Source of the DNA: an uncultured delta proteobacterium
Lineage (GTDB): Bacteria; Desulfobacterota; BSN033; UBA1163
Direction: 5' to 3'
Assembly (NCBI GenBank): GCA_963708295.1
Contig: CAVPSJ010000012.1
Coordinates: 64,001-128,000, forward strand
Length of the DNA stretch: 64,000 nucleotides
Shown here: in pieces, positions 18,105-29,025 of the stretch
Layout: every line of letters begins with the position of its first letter
Position numbering within the stretch: position 1 is the first letter of the stretch
Position numbers and translations under genes: made by a program
The notes under the pieces: generated by a model
What the model saw: only the letters and a program-made list of their open reading frames with translations
What the model was told of the DNA's origin: nothing
The model's database searches: none

Positions 18105-19388
18105 ATGAAGCACTACGTCAACTATGGGAATCAGAGGAAAGAATTCTCACTCCCGAGGGGATGGAATCCGATTTCTGCTGTGGATAAGCCTCCTATTCCC
18201 GGAGTAAACGACCCCATCCAGGAAATCAGACGCGCCCTGGATCATCCGATCGGATCAGCCAAGATTGAAGAGCTAGCACGCCCGGGGATGGAAGTGGTTC
18301 TACTCTTTGACGACTTGCAGCGGCCCACTCCGGTTCATCTTGCCCTGCCCGAGATCCTGAACCGCCTGAACCGGGCGGGGATCCCCGATGAGCGGATTAC
18401 CGGAATCTGTGCCGTGGGGACTCACTCTGTTCTCACATCGGAACAACTTGAGAGGAAGGTGGGAAAAGAATTTTTTTCCCGCCTGGAAAGCCGCGTCCTT
18501 TCCCATGATCCCCATGCCTCTGATAATGTGACCATTGGGAAAACCCATCGAGGAACTCTGGTGGAAGTCAACCATCGGGTGGCCTTCGCCGATCTGATCA
18601 TCGGGGTGGGAGAATGCATGCCTCACCCCATCGCCGGATACGGAGGCGGATGCAAGATCATCCTGCCCGGGGTTTGCTCTTATCGATCCGTAGCCGACCA
18701 TCATTATACATGGATGCGCCACCGAAGCAGCAAAGTGAACGTGATGGATGGAAACTCTTTTTACGAAGAGATCGTCGACGGCGGAAAGCTGGCAAGGCTG
18801 GCCTTCAAACTCGATTTCATCATCAATGAAAGGAAGGAAGTCATCCGGGCCTTCGCAGGAGATCCCGTCGCGGAGCACCGGGAAGCCTCACATCATGCGG
18901 CCTCTCTTTATCTGGTCCCCTTGCCAAAAATGGCGGACGTGACGATTACCGCTGCTTTTCCGATGGAAATCGGGGTGCAATCCACGAAGGCATTGACCAT
19001 GGCGGGATTTTGCACGAGATCCGGAGGAACGATCATCTGGGTTGCCCCGCAGAAAGAGGCCGGTCCGATTATGCCTTTGATCAAGGAAATGGCCAGCCCG
19101 GAAAGTGCGGGAGATTTCCACCGCCGGCTCATCCGAGGGGACGTTCCCGACCACCTCAAATCATTCGGAATCTCGTACATCATGCAGGTCGTTTACTTCA
19201 AAGAGCTGGCCGAAAAATTTAACGTCGTCCATGTGACGGAGGGACTTTCCCCGGAGCAGGTGAAGATGATGAAATTCTCCTATGCTCCGGATATGCAAGA
19301 AGCGATCAAACAGGTCTCCGAAATAATGGACAAGGCCGACGTCGCGATCCTTCCCTCCGGTGGCAATGTCATTGCGGAGGTCGGGTAA
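18105..19388 (+). CDS. larA: LarA-family nickel-pincer-dependent racemase/epimerase
   Basis: ALDHPIGS, DDLQRPTP, AVGTH, HDP, PH.IAGYGGGCK.ILPG. Confidence 0.85.
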   Translation: MKHYVNYGNQRKEFSLPRGWNPISAVDKPPIPGVNDPIQEIRRALDHPIGSAKIEELARPGMEVVLLFDDLQRPTPVHLALPEILNRLNRAGIPDERITGICAVGTHSVLTSEQLERKVGKEFFSRLESRVLSHDPHASDNVTIGKTHRGTLVEVNHRVAFADLIIGVGECMPHPIAGYGGGCKIILPGVCSYRSVADHHYTWMRHRSSKVNVMDGNSFYEEIVDGGKLARLAFKLDFIINERKEVIRAFAGDPVAEHREASHHAASLYLVPLPKMADVTITAAFPMEIGVQSTKALTMAGFCTRSGGTIIWVAPQKEAGPIMPLIKEMASPESAGDFHRRLIRGDVPDHLKSFGISYIMQVVYFKELAEKFNVVHVTEGLSPEQVKMMKFSYAPDMQEAIKQVSEIMDKADVAILPSGGNVIAEVG

Positions 19389-19570
19389 CGCTTGGCGTAA
19401 AGCGAACAGCGTCAAATCCACAGACCCCGTTAACGGATCGCTCCCACCTGATCGCCTTCGACCTTTGCAGATGAATCAACGCTCGCCTTGAAAATCGCCC
19501 TATCGAATGTTACAGAGTTTTTCGTCACCTTCTTCATCTCCATCAATAAAGGCATGGCCTGAGAGAATTC

Positions 19571-20551
19571 ATGTACAAGTTTATCTTTGCCTTCGGTTTG
19601 ATTGTTTCCGGACTGTTGATCGGATACGGAATCCAGACACTCGTCAGAAGAAAGGTCCTCGATCTTCCTCTACCCCTATTAGATCGACTCAGAAGATTTC
19701 TGGTGATGCTGGTTCTCCTGTTCATCAACCCGGTCACGATTGTGGGTGCTCTATGGACCATCAGAATGAATGACGGACGCCTGATGGCTTTCCCGGTCCT
19801 GGAGGTTTTCGCCATCCTTCTGGGAGGATTCCTGGCACTCGGGGCCTCAAAGATCTTGAAATTGGAACGGAGAAAAATCGGCTCAATGTTTGCCTGCGGT
19901 TTTTTTACCAACACGCTTTCCATCGGAGGACTGATCTGCTTTGTCTTTCTCGGGGAGATGGGGTTTGCCCTCGTCGCCTTTTACAGGATTTTTGAGGAGT
20001 TTATGTATTATGGCGTAGGCTTTCCTATGGCGAAACTCTACAGCACCGATACTCATGAGAAGGAGGTCTGGCAGGACAAACTCAAAAGGTTGGGGACGGA
20101 CACCTTTGTCCTTGTTTCTCTCAGCAGTCTTTTCACAGGAGGGTTACTCAATCTTTCCGGACTGAGAAGACCCGAAGTTTACCAGATCATCAATTCGATC
20201 CTGATTCCTCTTGGAACATTGGCCCTGCTTATTTCGATTGGACTCGCCATGAGGATCAAGACGATTCAAGACTACCTGAAGGAGTGCATGGTCATATCAG
20301 GGATCAAATTATTGATTGTCCCTGTCATTCTGACCCTAACAGCCTTCCTTCTGGGTTACGGAAAGATTGAAGAGGGGTTGCCATTGAAAGTGGTCATGAT
20401 CCTTTCGTCCATGCCGGTGGCATTTACTGCCTTGGTCCCTCCTTCCATTTACGGTCTCGATATCGACCTGGCAAATTCATGCTGGTTATTCAGCACCGCT
20501 CTGTTGGCCGTTGTCCTGCCGGTTTTATATATCGCCACCCAGTCCCTTTAG
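19571..20551 (+). CDS. AEC (auxin efflux carrier)-family transporter
   Basis: About 10 TM helices; F.NT..IGG, IKLLIVP, SSMPVAF motifs. Confidence 0.8.
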   Translation: MYKFIFAFGLIVSGLLIGYGIQTLVRRKVLDLPLPLLDRLRRFLVMLVLLFINPVTIVGALWTIRMNDGRLMAFPVLEVFAILLGGFLALGASKILKLERRKIGSMFACGFFTNTLSIGGLICFVFLGEMGFALVAFYRIFEEFMYYGVGFPMAKLYSTDTHEKEVWQDKLKRLGTDTFVLVSLSSLFTGGLLNLSGLRRPEVYQIINSILIPLGTLALLISIGLAMRIKTIQDYLKECMVISGIKLLIVPVILTLTAFLLGYGKIEEGLPLKVVMILSSMPVAFTALVPPSIYGLDIDLANSCWLFSTALLAVVLPVLYIATQSL

Positions 20552-20601
20552 TCCATTTTTTGCCGCCTCTCTAACCGCTTTTTCGAAATCAGCGGTGGCT
20601 A

Positions 20602-20697
20602 TCAACCATCGACGTTCTTTGTCGCCTGGTCACAGCCGATGCATAAAAATAGGATCAGGATTGCGAAAATGAATCTCATTCGTGTCGAGTGTCGCAT
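20602..20697 (-). pseudogene. N-terminal remnant of signal peptidase II (LspA-like)
   Basis: MRHSTRMRFIFAILILFLCIGCDQATKNV.. (DQ.TK motif) then premature stop. Confidence 0.55.
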
Positions 20698-20702
20698 GTT
20701 CG

Positions 20703-21191
20703 TTACTCCCTCGGCCGTCGCTGACCGGTGTTGCTCACCTGTTGGACGAGCACGTAGGCCATGAGACCCCCCATATACAGCACTCCTAACAGAAAAGAGA
20801 GACCCGCTTGAAGCCACGTGATTCGGTGCGTAGAGAGAAACATGAAGTACGCGTAAAGCACGAGCGGGATGTAGATCAGCGCGCCTGAGATGACACCGGG
20901 ATAGTACCTCTTCGTTACGATGGCCCCGCGAATGTGCAGAACGGCATTTGTGAAGACGAGGCTGAAGACTGACAAGCTCAGAACAAGGTTCGCCTTTCCG
21001 ATGAACGCGCTGAGAAGACACAACAGAACCAAGAGACCGTTCACCGCCAGATGAAACTTCAGCGTGAAAAGAGCCGTCGCCCTTGGAAGCAGTCTCTCAA
21101 GCGCACCTGCGAAGCCTCCGGGATAGACGTATTCTTCCAAGATGTGTACGACCGCAGCGCCCGGCAGCGCATCAAATACCCAATCCCCCAT
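20703..21191 (-). CDS. HXXEE-domain membrane protein (cassette)
   Basis: VHILEEYVYPGGF, NA.LH, YYPGV. Confidence 0.88.
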   Translation of the reverse strand: MGDWVFDALPGAAVVHILEEYVYPGGFAGALERLLPRATALFTLKFHLAVNGLLVLLCLLSAFIGKANLVLSLSVFSLVFTNAVLHIRGAIVTKRYYPGVISGALIYIPLVLYAYFMFLSTHRITWLQAGLSFLLGVLYMGGLMAYVLVQQVSNTGQRRPRE

Positions 21192-21233
21192 ATTTCCTCC
21201 TCCTCTCGTTTTCGCCCAAGAATCGCAAGATCG

Positions 21234-21316
21234 GGCTAACGCAAAGGGTGAGGCGGGGAGGTCGCCCTTACGATGAGGCCGGGCTACGCACGCTCGCCTC
21301 GAACCGCTTGCTAGCT
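21234..21316 (-). other. attC site (R'' degenerate)
   Basis: Minus strand AGCTAGC AAGCGGTTCGAGGCG...CGCCTCACCCTTTGC GTTAGCC. Confidence 0.75.
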
Positions 21317-21326
21317 GAATCGTTTC

Positions 21327-21686
21327 TCAGCAATAATTTATCCCAATTTTCTTAGTAATCTTGTCCAAGGTTTTATCGAAGGTCCAAAGAGGAACATCCG
21401 TTAGTAGAGCCGCGGCAATCAGATGAACATCTATATAGCCTAACCCCTTTCCCATAAGTTGATGATTCTCAATTAATTTTAAGACTTCTCCATCTTCGGC
21501 TAAGATTGTCATAGGAAGTGATTGAAGATATATAAGGATTTCATGCCTATTTTTGAGATTCCCACAGGCAAGCTCACCAACAATGAATGGATGGCATACA
21601 ACTTCCCCATCATTCAATAATTTCTCAAGGCCCACATTTCCATCACGCAGGTGAGACACCCATACGGAGGTATCAACAAGAACCAT
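21327..21686 (-). CDS. vapC: VapC PIN-domain toxin
   Basis: MVLVDTSVW, HPFIVGELACG, GLGYIDVHL, LWTFDK. Confidence 0.93.
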   Translation of the reverse strand: MVLVDTSVWVSHLRDGNVGLEKLLNDGEVVCHPFIVGELACGNLKNRHEILIYLQSLPMTILAEDGEVLKLIENHQLMGKGLGYIDVHLIAAALLTDVPLWTFDKTLDKITKKIGINYC

Positions 21687-21687
21687 T

Positions 21688-21885
21688 TTATTTCTCTGCT
21701 ATTCTCCGGCGGGGTATCATTTTCAATCCCTTTTCGGTTCCGCCCAGTTTCGCAAGCCTCTTACTACTTTCCATTGCAATTAATGCCTCTAACCCAAGCT
21801 TGACGAGTGTTGTTTTTTCTTTAATGCCTGTCAGTTTTGAAACCTTCTTAATTAGGTTGTCTTCGATGTTTAAGGTCGTCCTCAT
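21688..21885 (-). CDS. vapB: VapB antitoxin
   Basis: MRTTLNIEDNLI...TGIKEKT.LV..GLEALI..ES.KRLA.LGGT. Confidence 0.92.
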   Translation of the reverse strand: MRTTLNIEDNLIKKVSKLTGIKEKTTLVKLGLEALIAMESSKRLAKLGGTEKGLKMIPRRRIAEK

Positions 21886-21912
21886 ATAATCCTCCTGTAT
21901 CATATATGTATC

Positions 21913-21942
21913 AATATGCATGATTAGTGCATACATTGTCAA
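21913..21942 (-). promoter_or_regulatory. vapBC promoter with palindromic operator
   Basis: TTGACA -35 box; perfect inverted repeat TATGCA-N7-TGCATA (21915-21933) over the spacer/-10. Confidence 0.65.
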
Positions 21943-22004
21943 GACCTTCCCGAGATAACGGCAGGCTATTCACGCTTCTTGAGAGATCATTTTGTGGAGC
22001 GTAT

Positions 22005-22149
22005 GGGGTCAGGTCTTGAATTATCAGTTTTGTTTATCCCTGTTCATAATCTTGCTGACCGTAGTATAATGCACCCTTAAATGATCGGCAATCTGTTTTA
22101 AGGTGTAACCATGGGTGACATGTGCATGATAGATGGCCCGGTCTCTTTG
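22005..22149 (-). pseudogene. 3' remnant of a second Y1/RAYT-like transposase element (C-terminal HTH + end motif)
   Basis: QRDRAIYHAHVTHGYTLKQIADHLRVHYTTVSKIMNRDKQN* followed by AATTCAAGACCTGACCCC; same layout (HTH, stop, end ending in CCCC) as the 25-26 kb element. Confidence 0.65.
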
Positions 22150-22153
22150 CGGT

Positions 22154-22682
<529 letters not shown>

Positions 22683-22706
22683 TTACTTGTCGCAGTTATT
22701 ACTGAG

Positions 22707-22769
22707 GCCGAACATAGGCGTCACCCGGAGCCGGTTGTTTCGGCGATCGGGTGCACGCACTCGTTCGGT
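22707..22769 (-). other. attC site
   Basis: ACCGAAC GAGTGCGTGCACCCGATCGCCGAAACAACCGGCTCCGGGTGACGCCTAT GTTCGGC; L boxes pair with an extrahelical base. Confidence 0.85.
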
Positions 22770-22941
22770 CGCCTTTTCCTGAAGGGCCAATTGGCTATGG
22801 CGAAAATAACGGCAAAATAGCTTGCCAATGCTGCCGTGATGTCCAAACCCTCGAAGGAGGAATGTGTGTCTGGGACGATGTACGTCTGCTTCAAGCCGAG
22901 CACACTACCGAAGCAAAGTGTAGAAACCATGCAATTGAGCT

Positions 22942-23313
22942 TCACCAAGTTTGAGTAGCAGTTTCGATTGTAACAGCCAAGGTGGCACGTAGCCAGCTGA
23001 ACCTTTCCTTCATGAAATCAAAATCAGGGCCGGACGTCACGAACCTTGCCGTTCCCTTGATCAAGAAACCGGCACCCGGCCCATGCAGGCCCTCGACCTT
23101 ACTGCTCCCCAATGTAATCAACACATTCGGATTATGGGCAATGTTGGCCTCCGTCTTGTGCATGTAACCTGCGGGGATAAACAGCCGTTCATCTTCTGAT
23201 ATCCTGAGGTAACTATTCCAGGTATTGACCAAGTGGGGGCCATCAGGTCCCAGGGTGGCGATCGCAACAACTCCGTCCTTCTTCATGATTTCCTTCAGTT
23301 TCTCCGGGATCAT
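22942..23313 (-). CDS. FMN-binding split-barrel protein (pyridoxamine 5'-phosphate oxidase family)
   Basis: GVVAIAT...GPHLVNTWNSY, PAG.M.KTE.N, LGS..VEG..GPGAGFLI.G. Confidence 0.9.
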   Translation of the reverse strand: MIPEKLKEIMKKDGVVAIATLGPDGPHLVNTWNSYLRISEDERLFIPAGYMHKTEANIAHNPNVLITLGSSKVEGLHGPGAGFLIKGTARFVTSGPDFDFMKERFSWLRATLAVTIETATQTW

Positions 23314-23349
23314 CGTGTTCCTCCTTTTTTGTTTGGTTTGTTATTATGC

Positions 23350-23415
23350 GACGAACGAAAAAGGTCACCGGGAGCCAGATTTATCGGCGCTGTCGCCTCG
23401 ATTTTTTTGTTAGGG
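23350..23415 (-). other. attC site (apparently chimeric)
   Basis: CCCTAAC AAAAAAATCGAGGCGAC...GGCTCCCGGTGACCTTTTTC GTTCGTC; the two L arms are not mutually complementary. Confidence 0.7.
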
Positions 23416-23416
23416 G

Positions 23417-23896
23417 CTATTCGTCTTTGCATTTATCGCCTTTCAATATTCTTTCCTCTGCATATTGCGAAAGATAGCCCGAACCTCGAACAAACTTGGG
23501 AAGTGGTTCGATGCCGATTAATGGTATACATCTCTTATACTCCCTGATCAGCGAAAGCATGCGCTTACCGCGATTAATGACTTCACAGACTAATTCCTCT
23601 CCGGGATGTTCACCCATGTACACATTAAGTAAGTATGCCACTGCCTCATCGCCAGCTTTAGATCGGTTTTTCAAAATAGAATAAAAGCGCTTTTCGACGT
23701 CAGGAGTATATTGAGATTCACCACGCCAACGACCGTCTTCGGTAAACTGTTCTTTGTTCTGTTTTACACGTAGCTGCATCAATGGCTTAATCAGTTTCAT
23801 TGCTTTGTCTGAGAATTTTGCAGGTTTGCAATCATCAGCAATGGCAGCAGACACCAACAAAAGCATGCAGATAATAATATTCGTTATTATTCTCAT
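23417..23896 (-). CDS. secreted hypothetical protein (cassette)
   Basis: Signal peptide (..LLLVSAAIA); AT-rich; bounded by matching GTTAGGG/CCCTAAC boxes. Confidence 0.8.
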   Translation of the reverse strand: MRIITNIIICMLLLVSAAIADDCKPAKFSDKAMKLIKPLMQLRVKQNKEQFTEDGRWRGESQYTPDVEKRFYSILKNRSKAGDEAVAYLLNVYMGEHPGEELVCEVINRGKRMLSLIREYKRCIPLIGIEPLPKFVRGSGYLSQYAEERILKGDKCKDE

Positions 23897-23903
23897 TTTA
23901 TTG

Positions 23904-23962
23904 CCCTAACGTTACTCCTCAGGCGCGGCCTTTGGGACGCCGCCTGGAGGAGCTTGTTGGCC
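23904..23962 (-). other. attC site (59 bp)
   Basis: GGCCAAC AAGCTCCTCCAGGCGGCGTCCCAAAGGCCGCGCCTGAGGAGTAAC GTTAGGG. Confidence 0.9.
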
Positions 23963-24538
23963 TTTCTTTTCCTTGATGCAGTGCTTTGAGTGCGTCAGAC
24001 CCGTGAGAGCTGTTATTACTGCCCCACCGAGAAAAACAGTAGAGCCTGTGAAGAGATAGACAACCAAAAAAAGGACCGCAAAGCTAAGGAGTTCAACGAA
24101 AGATATTCGGTAACTCAACCATTTTTCATAGCGAATCTGCCCCGACAGCCCTCGATGCTCCTTGGCAATGCGAAACAGCGAGATGTTTCTAATATGTCTG
24201 ACAAGAATGGCGGCTTCTCTCAAAATAAGCCCGCCACATAGAAAACGGAAGAAGTACGATGCGATCAAATCTTCTTTGGAAACATACCAAAGGAACACGA
24301 TGATGATTGAGGTTATAGCTGCCGCGCGGAAGAACCGCGGGCTGAACATGCGGAGCACGTCGATATCCTTCTGGAATTCGGGAGTAAGTTCGTAGCTACC
24401 TTCGAACACGAAATGATCCCTCGCTCCAGCGGTTAGGTATCGCGCCCCGAGAATCGTCAGATAGTAATCCGAGATGTAAAGCATGACCCATAGCGGAAGA
24501 ACAACCCAAAGCTTCTGGAATATGAATTCTTCAAACAT
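23912..24538 (-). CDS. hypothetical multi-pass membrane protein (cassette; reads through its attC)
   Basis: 208 aa, about 5 TM segments; last residues encoded by the attC. Confidence 0.8.
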   Translation of the reverse strand: MFEEFIFQKLWVVLPLWVMLYISDYYLTILGARYLTAGARDHFVFEGSYELTPEFQKDIDVLRMFSPRFFRAAAITSIIIVFLWYVSKEDLIASYFFRFLCGGLILREAAILVRHIRNISLFRIAKEHRGLSGQIRYEKWLSYRISFVELLSFAVLFLVVYLFTGSTVFLGGAVITALTGLTHSKHCIKEKKGQQAPPGGVPKAAPEE

Positions 24539-24550
24539 CGTATCTCACAA

Positions 24551-24639
24551 GGCCAACGAAAGAAATAAGGCGCGGGGGCAACCACCCTCGCTAAATGGCG
24601 ACGGGGCTATTCCCCGTCGCCTTGATTGACTGGTTGGCA
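24551..24639 (-). other. attC site (89 bp)
   Basis: TGCCAAC CAGTCAATCAAGGCGACGGGGAATAGCCCCGTCGCC...CGCGCCTTATTTCTTTC GTTGGCC. Confidence 0.88.
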
Positions 24640-24640
24640 G

Positions 24641-24934
24641 TTATTGTCTTGCCATCTGGACTCGGGAGACGACCATTGCTGCCCAAAGGATAAGGATGAC
24701 CACCAAAATAATCTTCTCTTTCAGTCTCGATCTGGCCTTCTGCTCGTCCGGAATCAGCTCAAGATCACGGAAGAATAGAATACTTACAAGGGCAATAGGA
24801 AAACCGAAGGCCCCGGCAACCCACCATAAGGCGCGACTGCGGTGCTTTCGTTTTGCTAGGACGCCAGGGATTGCACCCAGACCGATAGAAATCAAGATGA
24901 AGATCAGAAGCGGCAGAAACATCAATAAGTTCAT
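24641..24934 (-). CDS. small membrane protein (cassette)
   Basis: MNLLMFLP..; LA.RK.RS..LWW..G..G motif; RBS GGAG; 3 TM segments. Confidence 0.75.
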   Translation of the reverse strand: MNLLMFLPLLIFILISIGLGAIPGVLAKRKHRSRALWWVAGAFGFPIALVSILFFRDLELIPDEQKARSRLKEKIILVVILILWAAMVVSRVQMARQ

Positions 24935-24946
24935 TTCATCATCTCC

Positions 24947-25017
24947 TGCCAACGCGCGAGTTGACCGACTTTTTGCCCTGGCAATGGGCGCGTGACGCCC
25001 GATTGACGGCCGGGAAT
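24947..25017 (-). other. truncated attC (L'/R' half), cut by the Y1 element
   Basis: ...GGGCGTCACGCGCCC...GTCGGTCAACTCGCGC GTTGGCA; R' matches R'' TGCCAAC at 24633-24639. Confidence 0.75.
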
Positions 25018-26111
25018 GGGGGACGTCCATAAAAATATAAGATTCTACCCTTCCATCAGTTGGAGATGTCTTTCTTCGATGATTCTCGCCCCCCGTTTTA
25101 CCGCCTGACTCACCGCTGGCTGTGTCACACCCAGCCTCCTTGCCACCTCCGTCCCACTCACGCCCAGCTCCCTCACCGCCCAGTAACTCACCACACTGCG
25201 GGCGGCCACCCCCCTCGGGGACTTCCCCTCTGTCTTGACCTCCTCCACTCTCATCCCAAACAGCTCTGCCACCCTTCCGATGATTCCCTCCAGATTCAAT
25301 CCTTCCGCTCTCAATCCGTATCGCCGCTCCATCGCCTCTTCCGACGCCTTAAGCACGTCCCCCACAAATTCGCTCTCCCCTAAAATCCGCTCATCTCCTT
25401 TGAACCGGCCTCTCCACCTCCCCAGTCCCTCAACTCCTTCCCATCCCCCTAGACTCCGAATCAGCCCTCCTCCCATCAGATCCGGCCTTCGCCCCCTCCG
25501 TACCCCCTGTTCGACATACTCCCGGTACTTTCTTCTTGCCACTTTCACCCTGCGCCCGAAATACGCTAATACCGTGTCCACATCCTGCCACTCTCTCTTC
25601 CGAAACCCCATGATCACACTGTGTCCGCTGTACGGATAGTGGTCCAGCGCATCTAAACTCTCCACCATTTTCCCCCGGAGTGCGTTCAGGTGAATATAAC
25701 GGACCAGTTCCAACAGATATCGATCCTCCTGACACAGAATCGATTTGTAACGATTCTGAAATAACACCCCATGTCTTCGGTGCCGTCGATTGTAAGTCAC
25801 GGCGTAGCCGGTCAGAAGCCGCCGCATCAGTCCTGCCACGGAAATTACTCCGCTCCGTACCAGAAGATGGACATGGTTGGGCAGCAGAGCCCAGGCAAAA
25901 CAGGATGTTTTCGTTTCCAAAAGAAGAAGTCCCAGACGGTCGAGAAACACGCTACGATCCTCATCGTCCTGGAAGATTCGCTTCCGCTCGATTCCTCGCA
26001 CAATGAGATGCTGCACTCCGCCAGGATAATCGATCCTTGCTTTCCGAGGCATGAAAACACCCTATCAACTCCCAACCAACATGTCAACTTATAATTTTAT
26101 GGACGTCCCCC
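25018..26111 (-). mobile_element. HUH/Y1 (RAYT-like) transposase element with 24-bp inverted repeats
   Basis: GGGGGACGTCCATAAAAATATAAG (25018-25041) and CTTATAATTTTATGGACGTCCCCC (26088-26111), 23/24 complementary; no obvious target-site duplication. Confidence 0.88.
25045..26052 (-). CDS. Y1 tyrosine transposase (RAYT/TnpA-like) with C-terminal HTH
   Basis: MPRKARID.PG..H.I.RG, HUH motif PNHVHLL, LFQNRYKS, catalytic RYIHLN, YPYSG, C-terminal EVARRLGVTQPAVS. Confidence 0.93.
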   Translation of the reverse strand: MPRKARIDYPGGVQHLIVRGIERKRIFQDDEDRSVFLDRLGLLLLETKTSCFAWALLPNHVHLLVRSGVISVAGLMRRLLTGYAVTYNRRHRRHGVLFQNRYKSILCQEDRYLLELVRYIHLNALRGKMVESLDALDHYPYSGHSVIMGFRKREWQDVDTVLAYFGRRVKVARRKYREYVEQGVRRGRRPDLMGGGLIRSLGGWEGVEGLGRWRGRFKGDERILGESEFVGDVLKASEEAMERRYGLRAEGLNLEGIIGRVAELFGMRVEEVKTEGKSPRGVAARSVVSYWAVRELGVSGTEVARRLGVTQPAVSQAVKRGARIIEERHLQLMEG

Positions 26112-26443
26112 TTGTTTCCCATGAATATTAAATACCAGTGTCCCGGGAAAACCCACCATGTAAGCAGTGTGGAGTAACCCGCTCCAATAATTAATATTCT
26201 CTTTCTCGTCTCAGGAATATACCAATAACGGCGGCAGATAGCCTCAACCGGCATTGCAATTAAAATAATAAAAAGTAGCGGGAACGAAAAAAAATAGTAC
26301 GCAATTTGCGGTCCCATGTTAGGGTGGTAATCCATGTATTTGTAATATTCTACTCTCAAATAGAGAAGAATGAATAAACCGACTAAAGCGCCTATTACGA
26401 TGAATGGCATGGCCGACCAATATTTAATTTCTTTTGATGTCAT
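26084..26443 (-). pseudogene. cassette membrane protein gene truncated by the Y1 element
   Basis: ORF runs into the inverted repeat (..GNKGDVHKIIS*); starts right after R' GTTAAAC. Confidence 0.65.
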
Positions 26444-26452
26444 TTTATTTTG

Positions 26453-26522
26453 GTTTAACGATTTGCATAACCTGCGCGGGCAGTCACCATGCCCAAAACC
26501 TGACGCGGCTATTCCGCGTCAC
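26453..26522 (-). other. truncated attC (L'/R' half)
   Basis: GACGCGGAATAGCCGCGTCAGG...CGCGCAGGTTATGCAAATC GTTAAAC; same internal hairpin style as attC 24551-24639. Confidence 0.7.
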
Positions 26523-26696
26523 CATTAAGAGTTGAGGCATTATATTTATTGCAACCCGGACACAAATGCCGGGGCTTTCTAACGGGGTCAAAAGCCCGGT
26601 GGATACCTAAAGGAAACGATAGACAATGATATGGTGCAGGTTGTCCGGGGCGTCAAGATATTCTAGCACAAACGCATTTATTTCTTTGACATAAGC

Positions 26697-26885
26697 TCCC
26701 CTCACCCTTCCCCCCTCCCCACTGGGGAGAGGGTGGGGTGAGGGAGGATTGAACCTGGCGGGGTTGACTATGATTCAAGTAACATCATTCCGAACCTTGC
26801 TCTGGAGCAAGGAACGGCGCCCCTCTATGTTGTAAATAGTCTCATCACCCCCACCCTCACCCTCCCCCGTCGAAGGGGGAGGGGA
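26697..26885. repeat. G/C-tract REP-like palindromes (family D)
   Basis: CCCTCACCC..CTCCCCACTGGGGAGAGGGTGGGGTGAGGG; CCCCCACCCTCACCTCCCCCGTCGAAGGGGGAGG. Confidence 0.7.
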
Positions 26886-26956
26886 TTAGGTTAAGGCGCG
26901 AGGGCCGATTTTTCGATTCCCTTTGTTTAGCCTGAAAACTGTTTTATCATTTGTTC

Positions 26957-27580
26957 ATGTGGACCAGAAGAAAACTCCTGAGAACGTGGTTTTGGGCTGC
27001 TTTATCAAGCTTCATTTTTCATCCCCTCTCCATCGGCTGGGCCGAGACAAAGAAGATCCTTCCAAAGGGATTCTCAAAAAACAAGCTCAAGGACATGAAC
27101 CCGGCTGAAATTGACGACCGAAATCTTGAGATTGATCCCCTTGGAAAATTCGGAACGATGGGGCCGACGGACGTACCCATCGATCTAAAAACGTATCGAC
27201 TCAAGGTCACGGGAAAGGTGGAACGCCCTCTTTCGCTCAGTTACGATGAAATTCTCAAGTCTCCCCCCTTGACGGAGACGGTCCTGCTCATCTGTCCTGG
27301 CTTCTTTGCCAATAACGGACGCTGGACTGGCTTCAATTTGAAGAGCTTCTTTGAAGAGGCGCAGATTAAGAAAGAGGCTCAATTTATCGACGTTGTGGGA
27401 GCCAGCGAAAAGCGAGTTAGAATTCCGTTAAAAGATCTCGACCAGAAAAAGATCTTTCTGGCCTACCGGGTGAACGGTGAAGCCCTTCCCCAAAAACACG
27501 GGTTTCCGTTGAGACTGGTTTACGAAGACGCCTATGGGTATGATTGGGTGAAGTATGTGGATGAAATCGTCGTCTCATAG
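26957..27580 (+). CDS. sulfite-oxidase-family (MsrP/YedY-like) molybdopterin oxidoreductase, Tat-like leader
   Basis: WTRRKLL; L.VTG.V..PL.L; LICPG; WTG; LAY.VNGE.LP.KHGFPLRLV....YG..WVKY. Confidence 0.88.
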   Translation: MWTRRKLLRTWFWAALSSFIFHPLSIGWAETKKILPKGFSKNKLKDMNPAEIDDRNLEIDPLGKFGTMGPTDVPIDLKTYRLKVTGKVERPLSLSYDEILKSPPLTETVLLICPGFFANNGRWTGFNLKSFFEEAQIKKEAQFIDVVGASEKRVRIPLKDLDQKKIFLAYRVNGEALPQKHGFPLRLVYEDAYGYDWVKYVDEIVVS

Positions 27581-27618
27581 ATAGTCGGCGGTTGAAATAT
27601 GACCATCCGTAGGAAAAG

Positions 27619-27642
27619 GGAACGCATATATGCGTTCCCTAC
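27619..27642 (-). repeat. GTAG-type REP
   Basis: GTAG+GGAACGCA-TATA-TGCGTTCC; identical copy at 30650-30673 with shared flank ATTTCGGAAGTCCCCG. Confidence 0.75.
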
Positions 27643-27887
27643 AAAGGATTTCGGAAGTCCCCGTGAACGGGATTTCGAAGACTCAACTCGCATCAACTGA
27701 GCGGATATACGCTTTGAAAAATCTCCCCTATCCCCTCTTTGCCAAAGAGGGGAATTTCGTCCCTATTTCAGAGGTAGTCTCTCACGTCTGAATAATTACG
27801 CATTGATTAATATTAGCAAACCATTGAGCAGAAAGCGGAGACGGCGGACTCAATTTTCGGATCATCCGGTTATTGAGTCATTGGAAT

Positions 27888-28934
27888 TTATTTGGGGTTT
27901 GAAATTTGGGATTTGGTTATTCCGTTCTCCTGGGCGGTTCCATTTTCGGCTAAAAATTCCAAAACAAGGGCGGCGACGTCTTCCGGTTTCTGCAACTCCA
28001 AATCGTGAATGCCATCATTAAACCGGACAATCCTGGCATTTCGAAGGTGGGCCCTCAAGAACTCCGCATTCGTCACTGCCATCCCGTGATAATAGGAATT
28101 CCCCCCGTAAAGGTAAAGAACAGGGGTTTGAATGGTTTTGGCCTGATCCGTGAAATCTCTCGATGTCTCGAGGGTCCGGGAGATGAGATGCCATGAAACG
28201 GCTGAAGCGGTTTTGTTATTTTCGGTGATGATCTCAACAACTTCTCTCTTTTCTGCCTCGGTCATCTGCTCCCATGCCTTGCCCATGACCGATTTTGCAA
28301 CGATCCTGGAGGCAAGGCCCAAACGAATCACCCCGATCGAAAGCTCTCCAACCACAGGCCATCCTAAGAGTCCCTTCATCGGCCGATAGGGAATATCCTG
28401 ATTTCTAATGCCGTTTCCTTCAATGGAGATGATCTTGTCCACCTTCTCCGGGTAACGAGCGGCAAGATTTAAGGCGATCGCTCCCCCATAGGAAACCCCG
28501 AAAATCTGAGCCCTCGGGATCTGCAAGGCCTCGATCATCTTCACGATCAAATCGGCCTGCTCTTCGATAGTGTACCCAAACCCGGACCGGGGTTTGTCGG
28601 AATCTCCCACACCGAGGTAATCGACACAAAACAGTTTATAATGGTTGGAAAGATATGGGATGATCCTGTTCCAGTGTCTGTAGGTGCTAAAGGCCCCCGG
28701 GATGAGAACGATGGGCTCACCCTCCCCCGCCTCGACATAATGAATATTGTAGCCCTGAACGACAACGAACTTATCCACACCGTATTGAGGCTTCGAATAA
28801 ACTTTGTGTTGGTCATTTTTGACCATGTAGCTGCAGCTACTGATCAGGAAAACGCAACCGGACATGAGAAGAACGGCGCCCATCCGGCCAAATTTGACGT
28901 TCGATATCATCCTCTTCATCACGGTCACCCGCAA
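27888..28934 (-). CDS. alpha/beta hydrolase (possible lipoprotein; start uncertain)
   Basis: HYVEAGEGEPIVLIPG, D.LG.GDSDKP, GVSYGG nucleophile elbow, catalytic His region GIHDL. Confidence 0.88.
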   Translation of the reverse strand: MRVTVMKRMISNVKFGRMGAVLLMSGCVFLISSCSYMVKNDQHKVYSKPQYGVDKFVVVQGYNIHYVEAGEGEPIVLIPGAFSTYRHWNRIIPYLSNHYKLFCVDYLGVGDSDKPRSGFGYTIEEQADLIVKMIEALQIPRAQIFGVSYGGAIALNLAARYPEKVDKIISIEGNGIRNQDIPYRPMKGLLGWPVVGELSIGVIRLGLASRIVAKSVMGKAWEQMTEAEKREVVEIITENNKTASAVSWHLISRTLETSRDFTDQAKTIQTPVLYLYGGNSYYHGMAVTNAEFLRAHLRNARIVRFNDGIHDLELQKPEDVAALVLEFLAENGTAQENGITKSQISNPK

Positions 28935-29025
28935 AGGGCGGAGCTCGGCATGGTGTTCCCTTTATATTGTACCCCTTGACCCCGCCCGAAGGGCGGGGAT
29001 TCGGGGAATCTGTCAAAAAATTCAA

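Follow-up and report, generated by a model that had tools for sequence, protein, structure and literature searches.

Within a 64,000-nucleotide (nt) stretch of DNA from an uncultured delta proteobacterium (assembly GCA_963708295.1, contig CAVPSJ010000012.1, positions 64,001 to 128,000), which we call the window, a mobile element lies in an array of integron gene cassettes. The element spans positions 25018-26111 (1094 bp) and contains a single open reading frame (ORF). Its two ends are 24-nt inverted repeats, pairing at all but one position (23 of 24; 96% complementary). The ORF, at 25045-26052 on the minus strand, is a TIRYT gene encoding a transposase of 335 amino acids (aa). The element is a TIRtron, an insertion sequence (IS)-like unit of about 1.1 kb with a TIRYT as its sole gene and with terminal inverted repeats starting GGGG(A/T)C. 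On one side it adjoins what is left of an attC site, and on the other side a cassette gene that has lost its end. Five attC sites were detected in the window between 21234 and 26537, all on the minus strand, which is also the strand of the transposase gene. No integrase gene lies close to these sites. An earlier reading of the letters without database searches (the sequence-only reading) had described the element as co-oriented with the cassettes, and this holds. We conclude that a TIRtron was inserted into the cassette array and that its junction with attC is probably accidental, not the target of the family.

The attC sites reported here were called with covariance models built in this analysis. 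The first model, R1, was made from 39 sites and gave the five sites of the window; the broader model, R2, was made from 74 sites and includes short attC types. Below, G000 is the window's own genome and G003, G005, G006, G019, and G021 are related genomes. L-numbers denote loci, and X1 to X4 are sequencing runs, each of which covers at most one-fifth of the stretch.

The protein was characterized by comparison with families, profiles, and structures. Pfam Y1_Tnp matched the 335-aa protein with E=3.9e-8 (33.9 bits, cut-off 23). When the single sequence was used, the helix-turn-helix matches near the C-terminus were weak, for example Bac_DnaA_C at 20.7 bits, under its cut-off of 31.5, and a search of solved structures returned no relevant match. 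The window protein was then aligned with 16 relatives of 30-70% identity, giving 17 sequences in all. The resulting profile matches structures of DnaA domain IV over positions 225-311 (E=3.5e-7) and the E. coli transposase TnpA_REP (4ER8) over positions 42-145 (E=1.7e-4). H60 and H62, which form the HUH motif, and Y119, within RYIHLN, are invariant in the alignment. The NCBIfam model NF047646, an equivalog for REP-associated tyrosine transposases (RAYTs), scored 55.7 bits, under the 80-bit cut-off. Taken on its sequence, TIRYT is predicted to be a RAYT-like Y1/HUH tyrosine transposase whose N-terminal nuclease is fused to a C-terminal DNA-binding domain with a helix-turn-helix like that of DnaA domain IV. 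The Y1 HUH transposase with a C-terminal helix-turn-helix proposed by the sequence-only reading is confirmed by the Pfam match, the profile, and the three invariant residues.

A second full copy of the element is present in G000 at C14:290202-291294, with 83% nt and 85% aa identity. The two copies cease to be similar at the repeat itself at one end; at the other end, similarity runs on for about 13 nt past the repeat. Since the alignment takes in the full unit and ends at or near the repeats, the unit is real and the repeat is not a product of chance. The repeat on the 3' side of the gene, the L-type end (25018-25041, starting GGGGGACGTCC), and the one on the 5' side, the R-type end (26088-26111), are both kept in the second copy. 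The earlier description of a 1094-bp unit with 24-bp repeats therefore stands, on the pairing of the repeats and on the C14 copy. Copies at 87-89% identity were found in G005:C57, G019:C15, and locus L143. Paralogues at 46-47% aa identity (C20 and C4) carry their own 26-bp inverted repeats, which start AGGGGACGTTGG and lie at an equal distance from the start codon. The end motif GGGGACGTCCATAAAA occurs in G000 as 6 exact matches and as 14 matches with two or fewer mismatches, and solo ends lie on C4, C8, C16, and C17.

Shortened forms of the element were also found. At G003:C4:277185-277380 (L045), about 70 nt of one end are joined to about 127 nt of the other, with the interior absent; such interior-less derivatives are miniature non-autonomous copies. 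A joint from 25040 to 26089 in X3 also lacks the interior, and since its shorter side has only 22 letters it is not firm. The protein family is very large, with at least 8000 scored candidates at E≤1e-3, and 581 relatives were confirmed in genome contigs. The best 80 of these 581 are 53-89% identical to the window protein and come mostly from records labelled Thermodesulfobacteriota or Deltaproteobacteria. Inverted repeats with a score of at least 14 were detectable at 56 of 76 TIRYT places in 40 relatives, nearly all of them containing a GGG(A/T)C core that lies at the tip or close to it. Tips among the relatives read GGGGACGT... or GGGGTCAG/A...; in a few cases the arm was called out of register. 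The unit and its conserved ends thus recur at unrelated places in G000 and in other genera.

Searches for other signals were made in and around the element. Neither a promoter nor a terminator was predicted for the transposase gene. By eye, four copies share a TTGACA hexamer located immediately interior to the R-type repeat; the promoter scan did not score this hexamer. A scan of positions 19000-29000 against Rfam returned only chance-level matches to microRNAs and small RNAs.

Just outside the repeats there is a ragged zone at each end. Eight nt, CCGGGAAT (25010-25017), lie between the attC remnant and the L-type repeat, and 9 nt, TTGTTTCCC (26112-26120), lie between the R-type repeat and the truncated cassette gene. 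The former are absent from the uninterrupted attC allele (X1, X2, and X3) and the latter from the intact allele of the gene (one X1 contig and loci L048-L052); therefore neither is host DNA. Positions 26112-26119 travel with the repeat, as a second X1 contig is identical to the window over 26077-26119 and then diverges. Positions 25010-25017 could either be part of the element, as a ragged extension of its end, or be filler at the junction. The GGGAA that had been noticed in both outer flanks is present, and GGRAAT-like flanks are found at other copies in G000; the motif belongs to the ragged, element-associated zone. The outer flanks turn purine-rich toward the repeat at both ends. When single-stranded, the ends fold no better than shuffled sequence (z from +0.4 to +2.5). 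No target-site duplication was seen at the window element, as the sequence-only reading had stated, and a direct repeat of at least 4 nt was found in 0 of 46 related elements with anchorable ends.

In several copies, a few bases of the flank and the tip of the repeat are duplicated in tandem just outside the repeat, and the duplicate ends with GGGGGACG. Two such cases in the genome, G000:C14:291295-291330 and G000:C16:7098-7130, include the first 8-12 bases of the repeat, and in both the duplicated block stops exactly after GGGGGACG. This end of the block may mark the nicking site. A variant contig of X3 with 20 nt inserted at 25013 is of the same tandem-duplication type, and in a variant of X2 the TTGTTTCCC flank is duplicated (window position 26109). 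Matches to the tip at 7 of 8 positions were found in the 30-nt outer flank of 6 of 91 ends, where 1.15 were expected and some of 200 control sets reach 6.

The junction on the 3' side of the transposase gene lies inside an attC site. The remnant, at 24947-25009 on the minus strand, consists of the R' core GTTGGCA (24947-24953), the L' arm, and the centre; R'' and the L'' arm have been lost. Contigs from X1 and X2 match the window from 24951 or 24956 up to 25009 and then diverge, and contigs from X3 diverge after 24992. By eye, the continuation of these contigs supplies an L'' partner for 24960-24978, with which it forms a stem of 15 bp that has a single bulged base, and then a GTT/AAC R box. 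On the evidence of these alleles and of the pairing made by eye, the uninterrupted allele is a complete attC of a longer type. Model R1 left the remnant (24925-25017) unscored, even as a truncated match. The claim that one end falls in an attC without its R''/L'' half is therefore supported by the uninterrupted alleles.

At the other junction, the element is joined to a minus-strand cassette gene for a small membrane protein of no family (26121-26443), which has lost about its last 20 codons together with the R'' box of its own attC. In the window, a 119-aa ORF (26084-26443) reads from the gene into the repeat. Six homologous proteins extend about 20 residues further (...WYLIFILNPLTIRWILGL...), and in five metagenome loci (L048-L052) and one X1 contig the intact end of the gene, overlapping the R'' box of its own attC, is present. 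In all of these, similarity to the window stops at 26121. That this end of the element truncates a cassette gene, as had been suggested, is thus seen in homologues and alleles alike. The gene has no homologue in 54 genomes of the same family. We also considered GGGAAACAA at 26112-26120 as the R'' box of the interrupted attC and rejected it, because the intact allele departs from the window at 26121 and because 26112-26119 accompany the repeat into another context.

The DNA expected between the two flanks is gone: the last ~20 codons of the gene, R'', and the L'' arm. Neither the contigs of the runs nor the metagenome loci contain a contig that joins both flanks, and therefore the site is not a clean insertion: the entry of the element was combined with a deletion or with a rearrangement of greater complexity. 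Insertion elsewhere followed by an unrelated deletion had been named in the sequence-only reading as the history that would speak against attC recognition. Of this, insertion with deletion or rearrangement agrees with the site; an allele with both flanks joined was not found among those contigs and loci. The suggestion that the element remodels cassette DNA without the integrase IntI is compatible with the loss of the attC arm. As a separate observation, the cassette gene of 26121-26443 is found in L048-L052 with two or more attC types; the alleles cease to be similar right past the R'' box (GGGCTTAACAA), a pattern that an exchange of attC sites at R'' would give.

To place the junction in context, TIRYT loci were compared for the presence of an attC match within about 6 kb, with E≤1e-3 for 75 loci of relatives and E≤0.01 for 79 independently sampled loci of other genomes. 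An unrelated transposase family, Pfam rve, served as the control. The distance thresholds were picked after the data had been inspected and related genomes are non-independent samples, so that the figures are exploratory. With R2, an attC match was present at 9 of the 75 loci of relatives, all 9 among the 49 loci from the same bacterial family, and at 9 of the 79 loci of other genomes. The remaining 66 and 70 loci, respectively, have no attC match. Enrichment of the homologues near attC sites, which the sequence-only reading had put forward as a check, did not separate them from the control: 9/49 same-family TIRYT loci compared to 6/60 random rve loci of equal size (Fisher one-sided p=0.16). 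With R1, 6 of 50 TIRYT places in 24 same-family relatives and 3 of 82 rve places were within 6 kb of attC (Fisher one-sided p=0.07). Most of the attC enrichment is common to an unrelated transposase, which fits arrays and their neighbourhood as sites where mobile DNA accumulates.

The junctions of eight array-resident copies were measured, and only that of the window copy lies inside attC. Two are 8 nt (L207) and 23 nt (L132) past an R' box, two are 21 nt (L191) and about 95 nt (G000:C4) before an R'' box, and three are 172 nt (L107), 231 nt (L129), and 458 nt (L073) from the nearest attC. Because the positions vary in this way, there is no fixed target for TIRtrons within attC sites. Members of the window's own subfamily at C14, L142, and L143 have no attC match at E≤0.01; L142, which is the same stretch as L062, has one weak co-oriented match at E=0.017. 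The proposal of a class of HUH elements that recognizes folded attC sites is not borne out, given the family to which the element belongs, the loci that are free of attC, and the single junction of eight that is inside one.

That family has been described. RAYT-like genes with terminal inverted repeats were named TIRYTs, and the units containing them TIRtrons, by Di Nocera, De Gregorio and Rocco (2013, PMC3733652), who give a common GGGGWSAS motif, carried by most of the published cases, and moderately abundant families of solo repeats. In the classification by Quentin et al. (2018, PMC6006769), TnpA_Y1 subclass 2.1 takes in 20 of the 26 published TIRYTs, 291 of 292 'group 1 RAYT' sequences are also assigned to it, and its subgroup 2.1.2 has a Bac_DnaA_C-like or helix-turn-helix (HTH_23/HTH_28) C-terminus and no REP-like structures nearby. 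From its protein sequence, we would equate the element with subclass 2.1, subgroup 2.1.2, and with the 'group 1 RAYTs'. The statement in the sequence-only reading that families with such repeats appear in phylogenomic surveys agrees with both papers. In the literature searched, TIRYT and TIRtron are named only in these two papers. The word 'integron' occurs 0 times in their main texts, which mention neither array residence nor co-orientation with cassettes, and no published census of TIRtrons against integron arrays was found in the literature searched. The element belongs to this known, poorly understood kind; a new class that recognizes attC is not supported, and the co-orientation with cassettes remains as a lead.

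Comparison with known systems agrees with this assignment. Like the published TIRtrons, the window element encodes a RAYT-like Y1/HUH protein, about 330 aa long, whose C-terminus has a Bac_DnaA_C-like helix-turn-helix. Its gene lies at fixed distances from terminal inverted repeats with a run of G at their start, solo ends are moderately repeated, and REP hairpins are absent. The element differs in that its tip, GGGGACGT, fits 6 of the 8 positions of GGGGWSAS, whereas GGGGTCAG of distant relatives fits all 8. With REPtrons, which comprise the E. coli-type RAYT (TnpA_REP, 4ER8) and hairpins of the REP/BIME kind, it shares a homologous catalytic domain (profile E=1.7e-4) and a gene bracketed by inverted copies of a repeat that is also present elsewhere in the genome. 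Unlike REPtrons, it lacks GTAG-tagged hairpins, its protein is twice as long with an extra DNA-binding domain and scores under the NCBIfam equivalog cut-off, and the whole unit moves. The IS200/IS605 elements (IS608, ISDra2) have the same Y1 HUH chemistry and no target-site duplication, and the window element may perhaps also resemble them in using single-stranded DNA and in being oriented by replication. They differ from it in their short TnpA and in their ends, which have subterminal hairpins and lack terminal inverted repeats; in contrast, the window element has 24-bp terminal inverted repeats, no hairpins, and a 335-aa protein. IS1111-attC elements and group IIC-attC introns insert at one defined position of attC. 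The window element, like them, lies inside an attC of an array and is co-oriented with the cassettes, but the position of TIRtrons varies and most family members are outside arrays. The enzymes are also different: a DEDD transposase for IS1111-attC, a reverse transcriptase and ribozyme for group IIC-attC, and an HUH transposase for the window element.

We know of no mechanism for TIRtrons. By analogy with characterized Y1 transposases, the C-terminal domain would bind the double-stranded repeats, and the HUH/Tyr centre would nick one strand near the GGGGGACG tip. As IS200/IS605 elements do, TIRtrons could move by way of single strands at replication forks. The element would have inserted into a cassette, and a neighbouring deletion or recombination between copies would then have removed the attC arm. 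With its arm lost, the cassette could presumably no longer fold its attC and would be frozen in the array. Cassette arrays, under this model, would be tolerant places where mobile elements collect. As a single case, the locus is ordinary, a described type of element in a tolerant region. The uninterrupted alleles of both flanks make it more concrete, as the insertion goes with loss of an attC arm and gives a way for an element that is not part of the integron to immobilize a cassette. The co-orientation with cassettes, the tandem duplications of flank and tip, and the bias in GC skew are testable hints of action on one strand, as in IS200/IS605.

Several results weigh against an accidental junction in a passive sink. 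A passive sink does not predict co-orientation with the cassettes, and among TIRYT genes near attC, co-orientation is seen at 18 of 19 loci when E≤1e-3 is required and at 21 of 22 loci with E≤0.01. The general co-orientation with neighbouring ORFs is about 60% (227/363 and 202/350), a background that comes from crude ORF calls, and the comparison with 18/19 gives p=8e-4. In the 79 independently sampled loci, all 16 attC matches are on the transposase strand. Against random placement, the 6 of 50 TIRYT places near attC are an enrichment, since about 1% is expected by length (binomial p=1e-5). Two of the nine TIRYT loci in G000 are inside arrays (C12 and C4) and a third (C6) is 3.5 kb away; the copy of the same subfamily at G019:C15, a pseudogene at 88% nt identity, sits within an array that has nine or more short attC sites. 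Half of the eight measured junctions (the window, L207, L191, and L132) are within about 25 nt of an R box. As to mobility, the two copies in G000 differ by 17% and show no sign of recent movement, and the mechanistic steps above are drawn by analogy from the biochemistry of IS200/IS605 and RAYTs. The orientation, the enrichment, and the junctions near R boxes could mean that TIRtrons are strand-specific colonizers of arrays. Their transposase would act on cassette DNA that is single-stranded and rich in hairpins, or else on whichever strand the fork exposes, in which case TIRtrons would enter preferentially in one orientation and erode attC, and the window junction would be a product of targeting. 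Integrase fragments beside TIRtrons at G000:C4, L145, L167, and L110 also favour such colonization. We nevertheless think it unlikely. There is no fixed insertion point, four of the eight junctions are 95-458 nt from any attC, and most family members have no attC nearby. The rve control is enriched too (6/60), with 4 of its 6 loci co-oriented, and neither difference from TIRYT is significant (p=0.16 for proximity; p=0.13 for orientation, with too few loci to separate the two). The non-independence of related genomes and the thresholds set after inspection bear on these counts as well. Finally, the direction of replication could orient both the cassettes and the transposon: in G000, GC skew over ±50 kb is positive on the coding strand of the transposase at 8 of the 9 TIRYT loci, all but the C4 copy. 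Replication-linked orientation is known for IS200/IS605, and by analogy it is a plausible common cause of the co-orientation. In its broadest form, the colonizer idea makes TIRtrons a third kind of integron-associated mobile element, single-strand HUH transposons that preferentially enter arrays in one orientation, erode attC arms, and fuse and freeze cassettes without an integrase. We hold this to be doubtful. The preferential entry could arise because arrays expose structured single-stranded DNA, or because arrays and TIRtrons both follow the replication fork.

Two other explanations are much less probable than the insertion of a TIRtron with an accidental attC junction. The element might have arrived through the integron integrase as cargo of a gene cassette, possibly a composite one, with junctions that come from integrase-mediated or homologous recombination between attC sites. 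Some observations would fit this. The cassette at 24552-24947 is found at about 98% identity in another array (an X4 contig), after a different copy of the same attC type, and the joint from 24947 to 24552 falls within the 7-nt R' core GTTGGCA and marks the cassette boundary. The X4 joint directly shows past movement of this cassette. The truncated gene at 26121-26443 is also found with different attC types in its metagenome alleles, and an integron integrase above the family cut-off is present in 12 of the 41 related genomes searched. However, the breaks in the window are at the element ends plus 8-9 nt and not at the crossover points of R boxes, identical element ends are seen at many sites outside arrays, and the same subfamily is outside detectable arrays at G000:C14, L142, and L143. 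Also, G000 has no integrase above the cut-off (best match 86 bits compared to 265). Arrival as cargo is therefore scarcely probable. The gene could instead be a domesticated, non-mobile RAYT-like gene that maintains REP-like repeats, its position in the array being due to dispersal of the repeats, and this we regard as very improbable. Few copies per genome with divergent paralogues, the dispersed solo ends (14 with two or fewer mismatches), the label 'REP element-mobilizing transposase RayT' in source records of relatives, and the placement of the 'group 1 RAYTs' in subclass 2.1 (PMC6006769, main text) would suit a domesticated gene. They are outweighed by the recurrence of the whole 1.09-kb unit at 83-89% at non-homologous places, with similarity ending at the repeats, by the interruption of genes by the element, by ends that are not hairpins, and by the score of 55.7 bits with the NCBIfam REP-associated model, under the 80-bit cut-off.

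The array around the TIRtron consists of small co-oriented genes separated by attC sites. Upstream of the truncated cassette lies the attC at 26453-26537 on the minus strand (covariance model, 59.3 bits, E=2.8e-14). The next cassette (ORF 24641-24934) has its attC at 24551-24639, also on the minus strand (94.5 bits), and homologous sites lie beside intI in relatives. Both of these flanking repeats have many homologues in relatives. In alignments of these, conservation begins at a YTAAC box, reaches to a CGTT box, and is lost directly past GTT, as would be expected of attC at cassette boundaries. In the 39 sites, the L''/L' stem is 95.8% paired, with compensatory changes at 5 of 8 pairs, one bulged column, and near-constant AAC/GTT boxes. 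At G021:C399 and G006:C149, true integron integrase genes are followed by homologous sites in canonical orientation. A hairpin-loop search for further attC copies returned only the two already seen. The rest of the array (21234-23962, minus strand) has attC sites at 21234-21316, 22707-22769, and 23904-23962 and carries VapBC, BrnTA, PNPOx-like, and orphan genes.

Several minor observations were made in this array and in others. Two toxin-antitoxin cassettes are present at 21327-22637, one with VapB and a PIN protein and one with BrnT and a small partner; toxin-antitoxin cassettes are common in chromosomal integrons. The 59-nt attC at 23904-23962 overlaps the 3' end of the ORF at 23912-24538, whose stop codon is inside its own attC. 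At G000:C4:1007421-1011488 (L003 and L007) there is a decayed integron, in which a fragment on the opposite strand matches only the last ~66 residues of an integrase and is followed by at least six attC sites; a co-oriented TIRtron of another subfamily (46% aa identity) lies in the cassette between the first two. In three other genomes, TIRtrons have an integron integrase fragment no more than about 0.5 kb away (L145:5353-5565, L167:2480-2692, and L110:6923-7087); the identity of these fragments is 44-69% over 55-78 residues. Beyond the array, C-rich and G-rich palindromic repeats at 26668-26744 and 26845-26888, in which CCCTCACCC... faces GGGTGAGGG..., are unrelated to attC and are multi-copy in G000 and many relatives at 80-98% identity.

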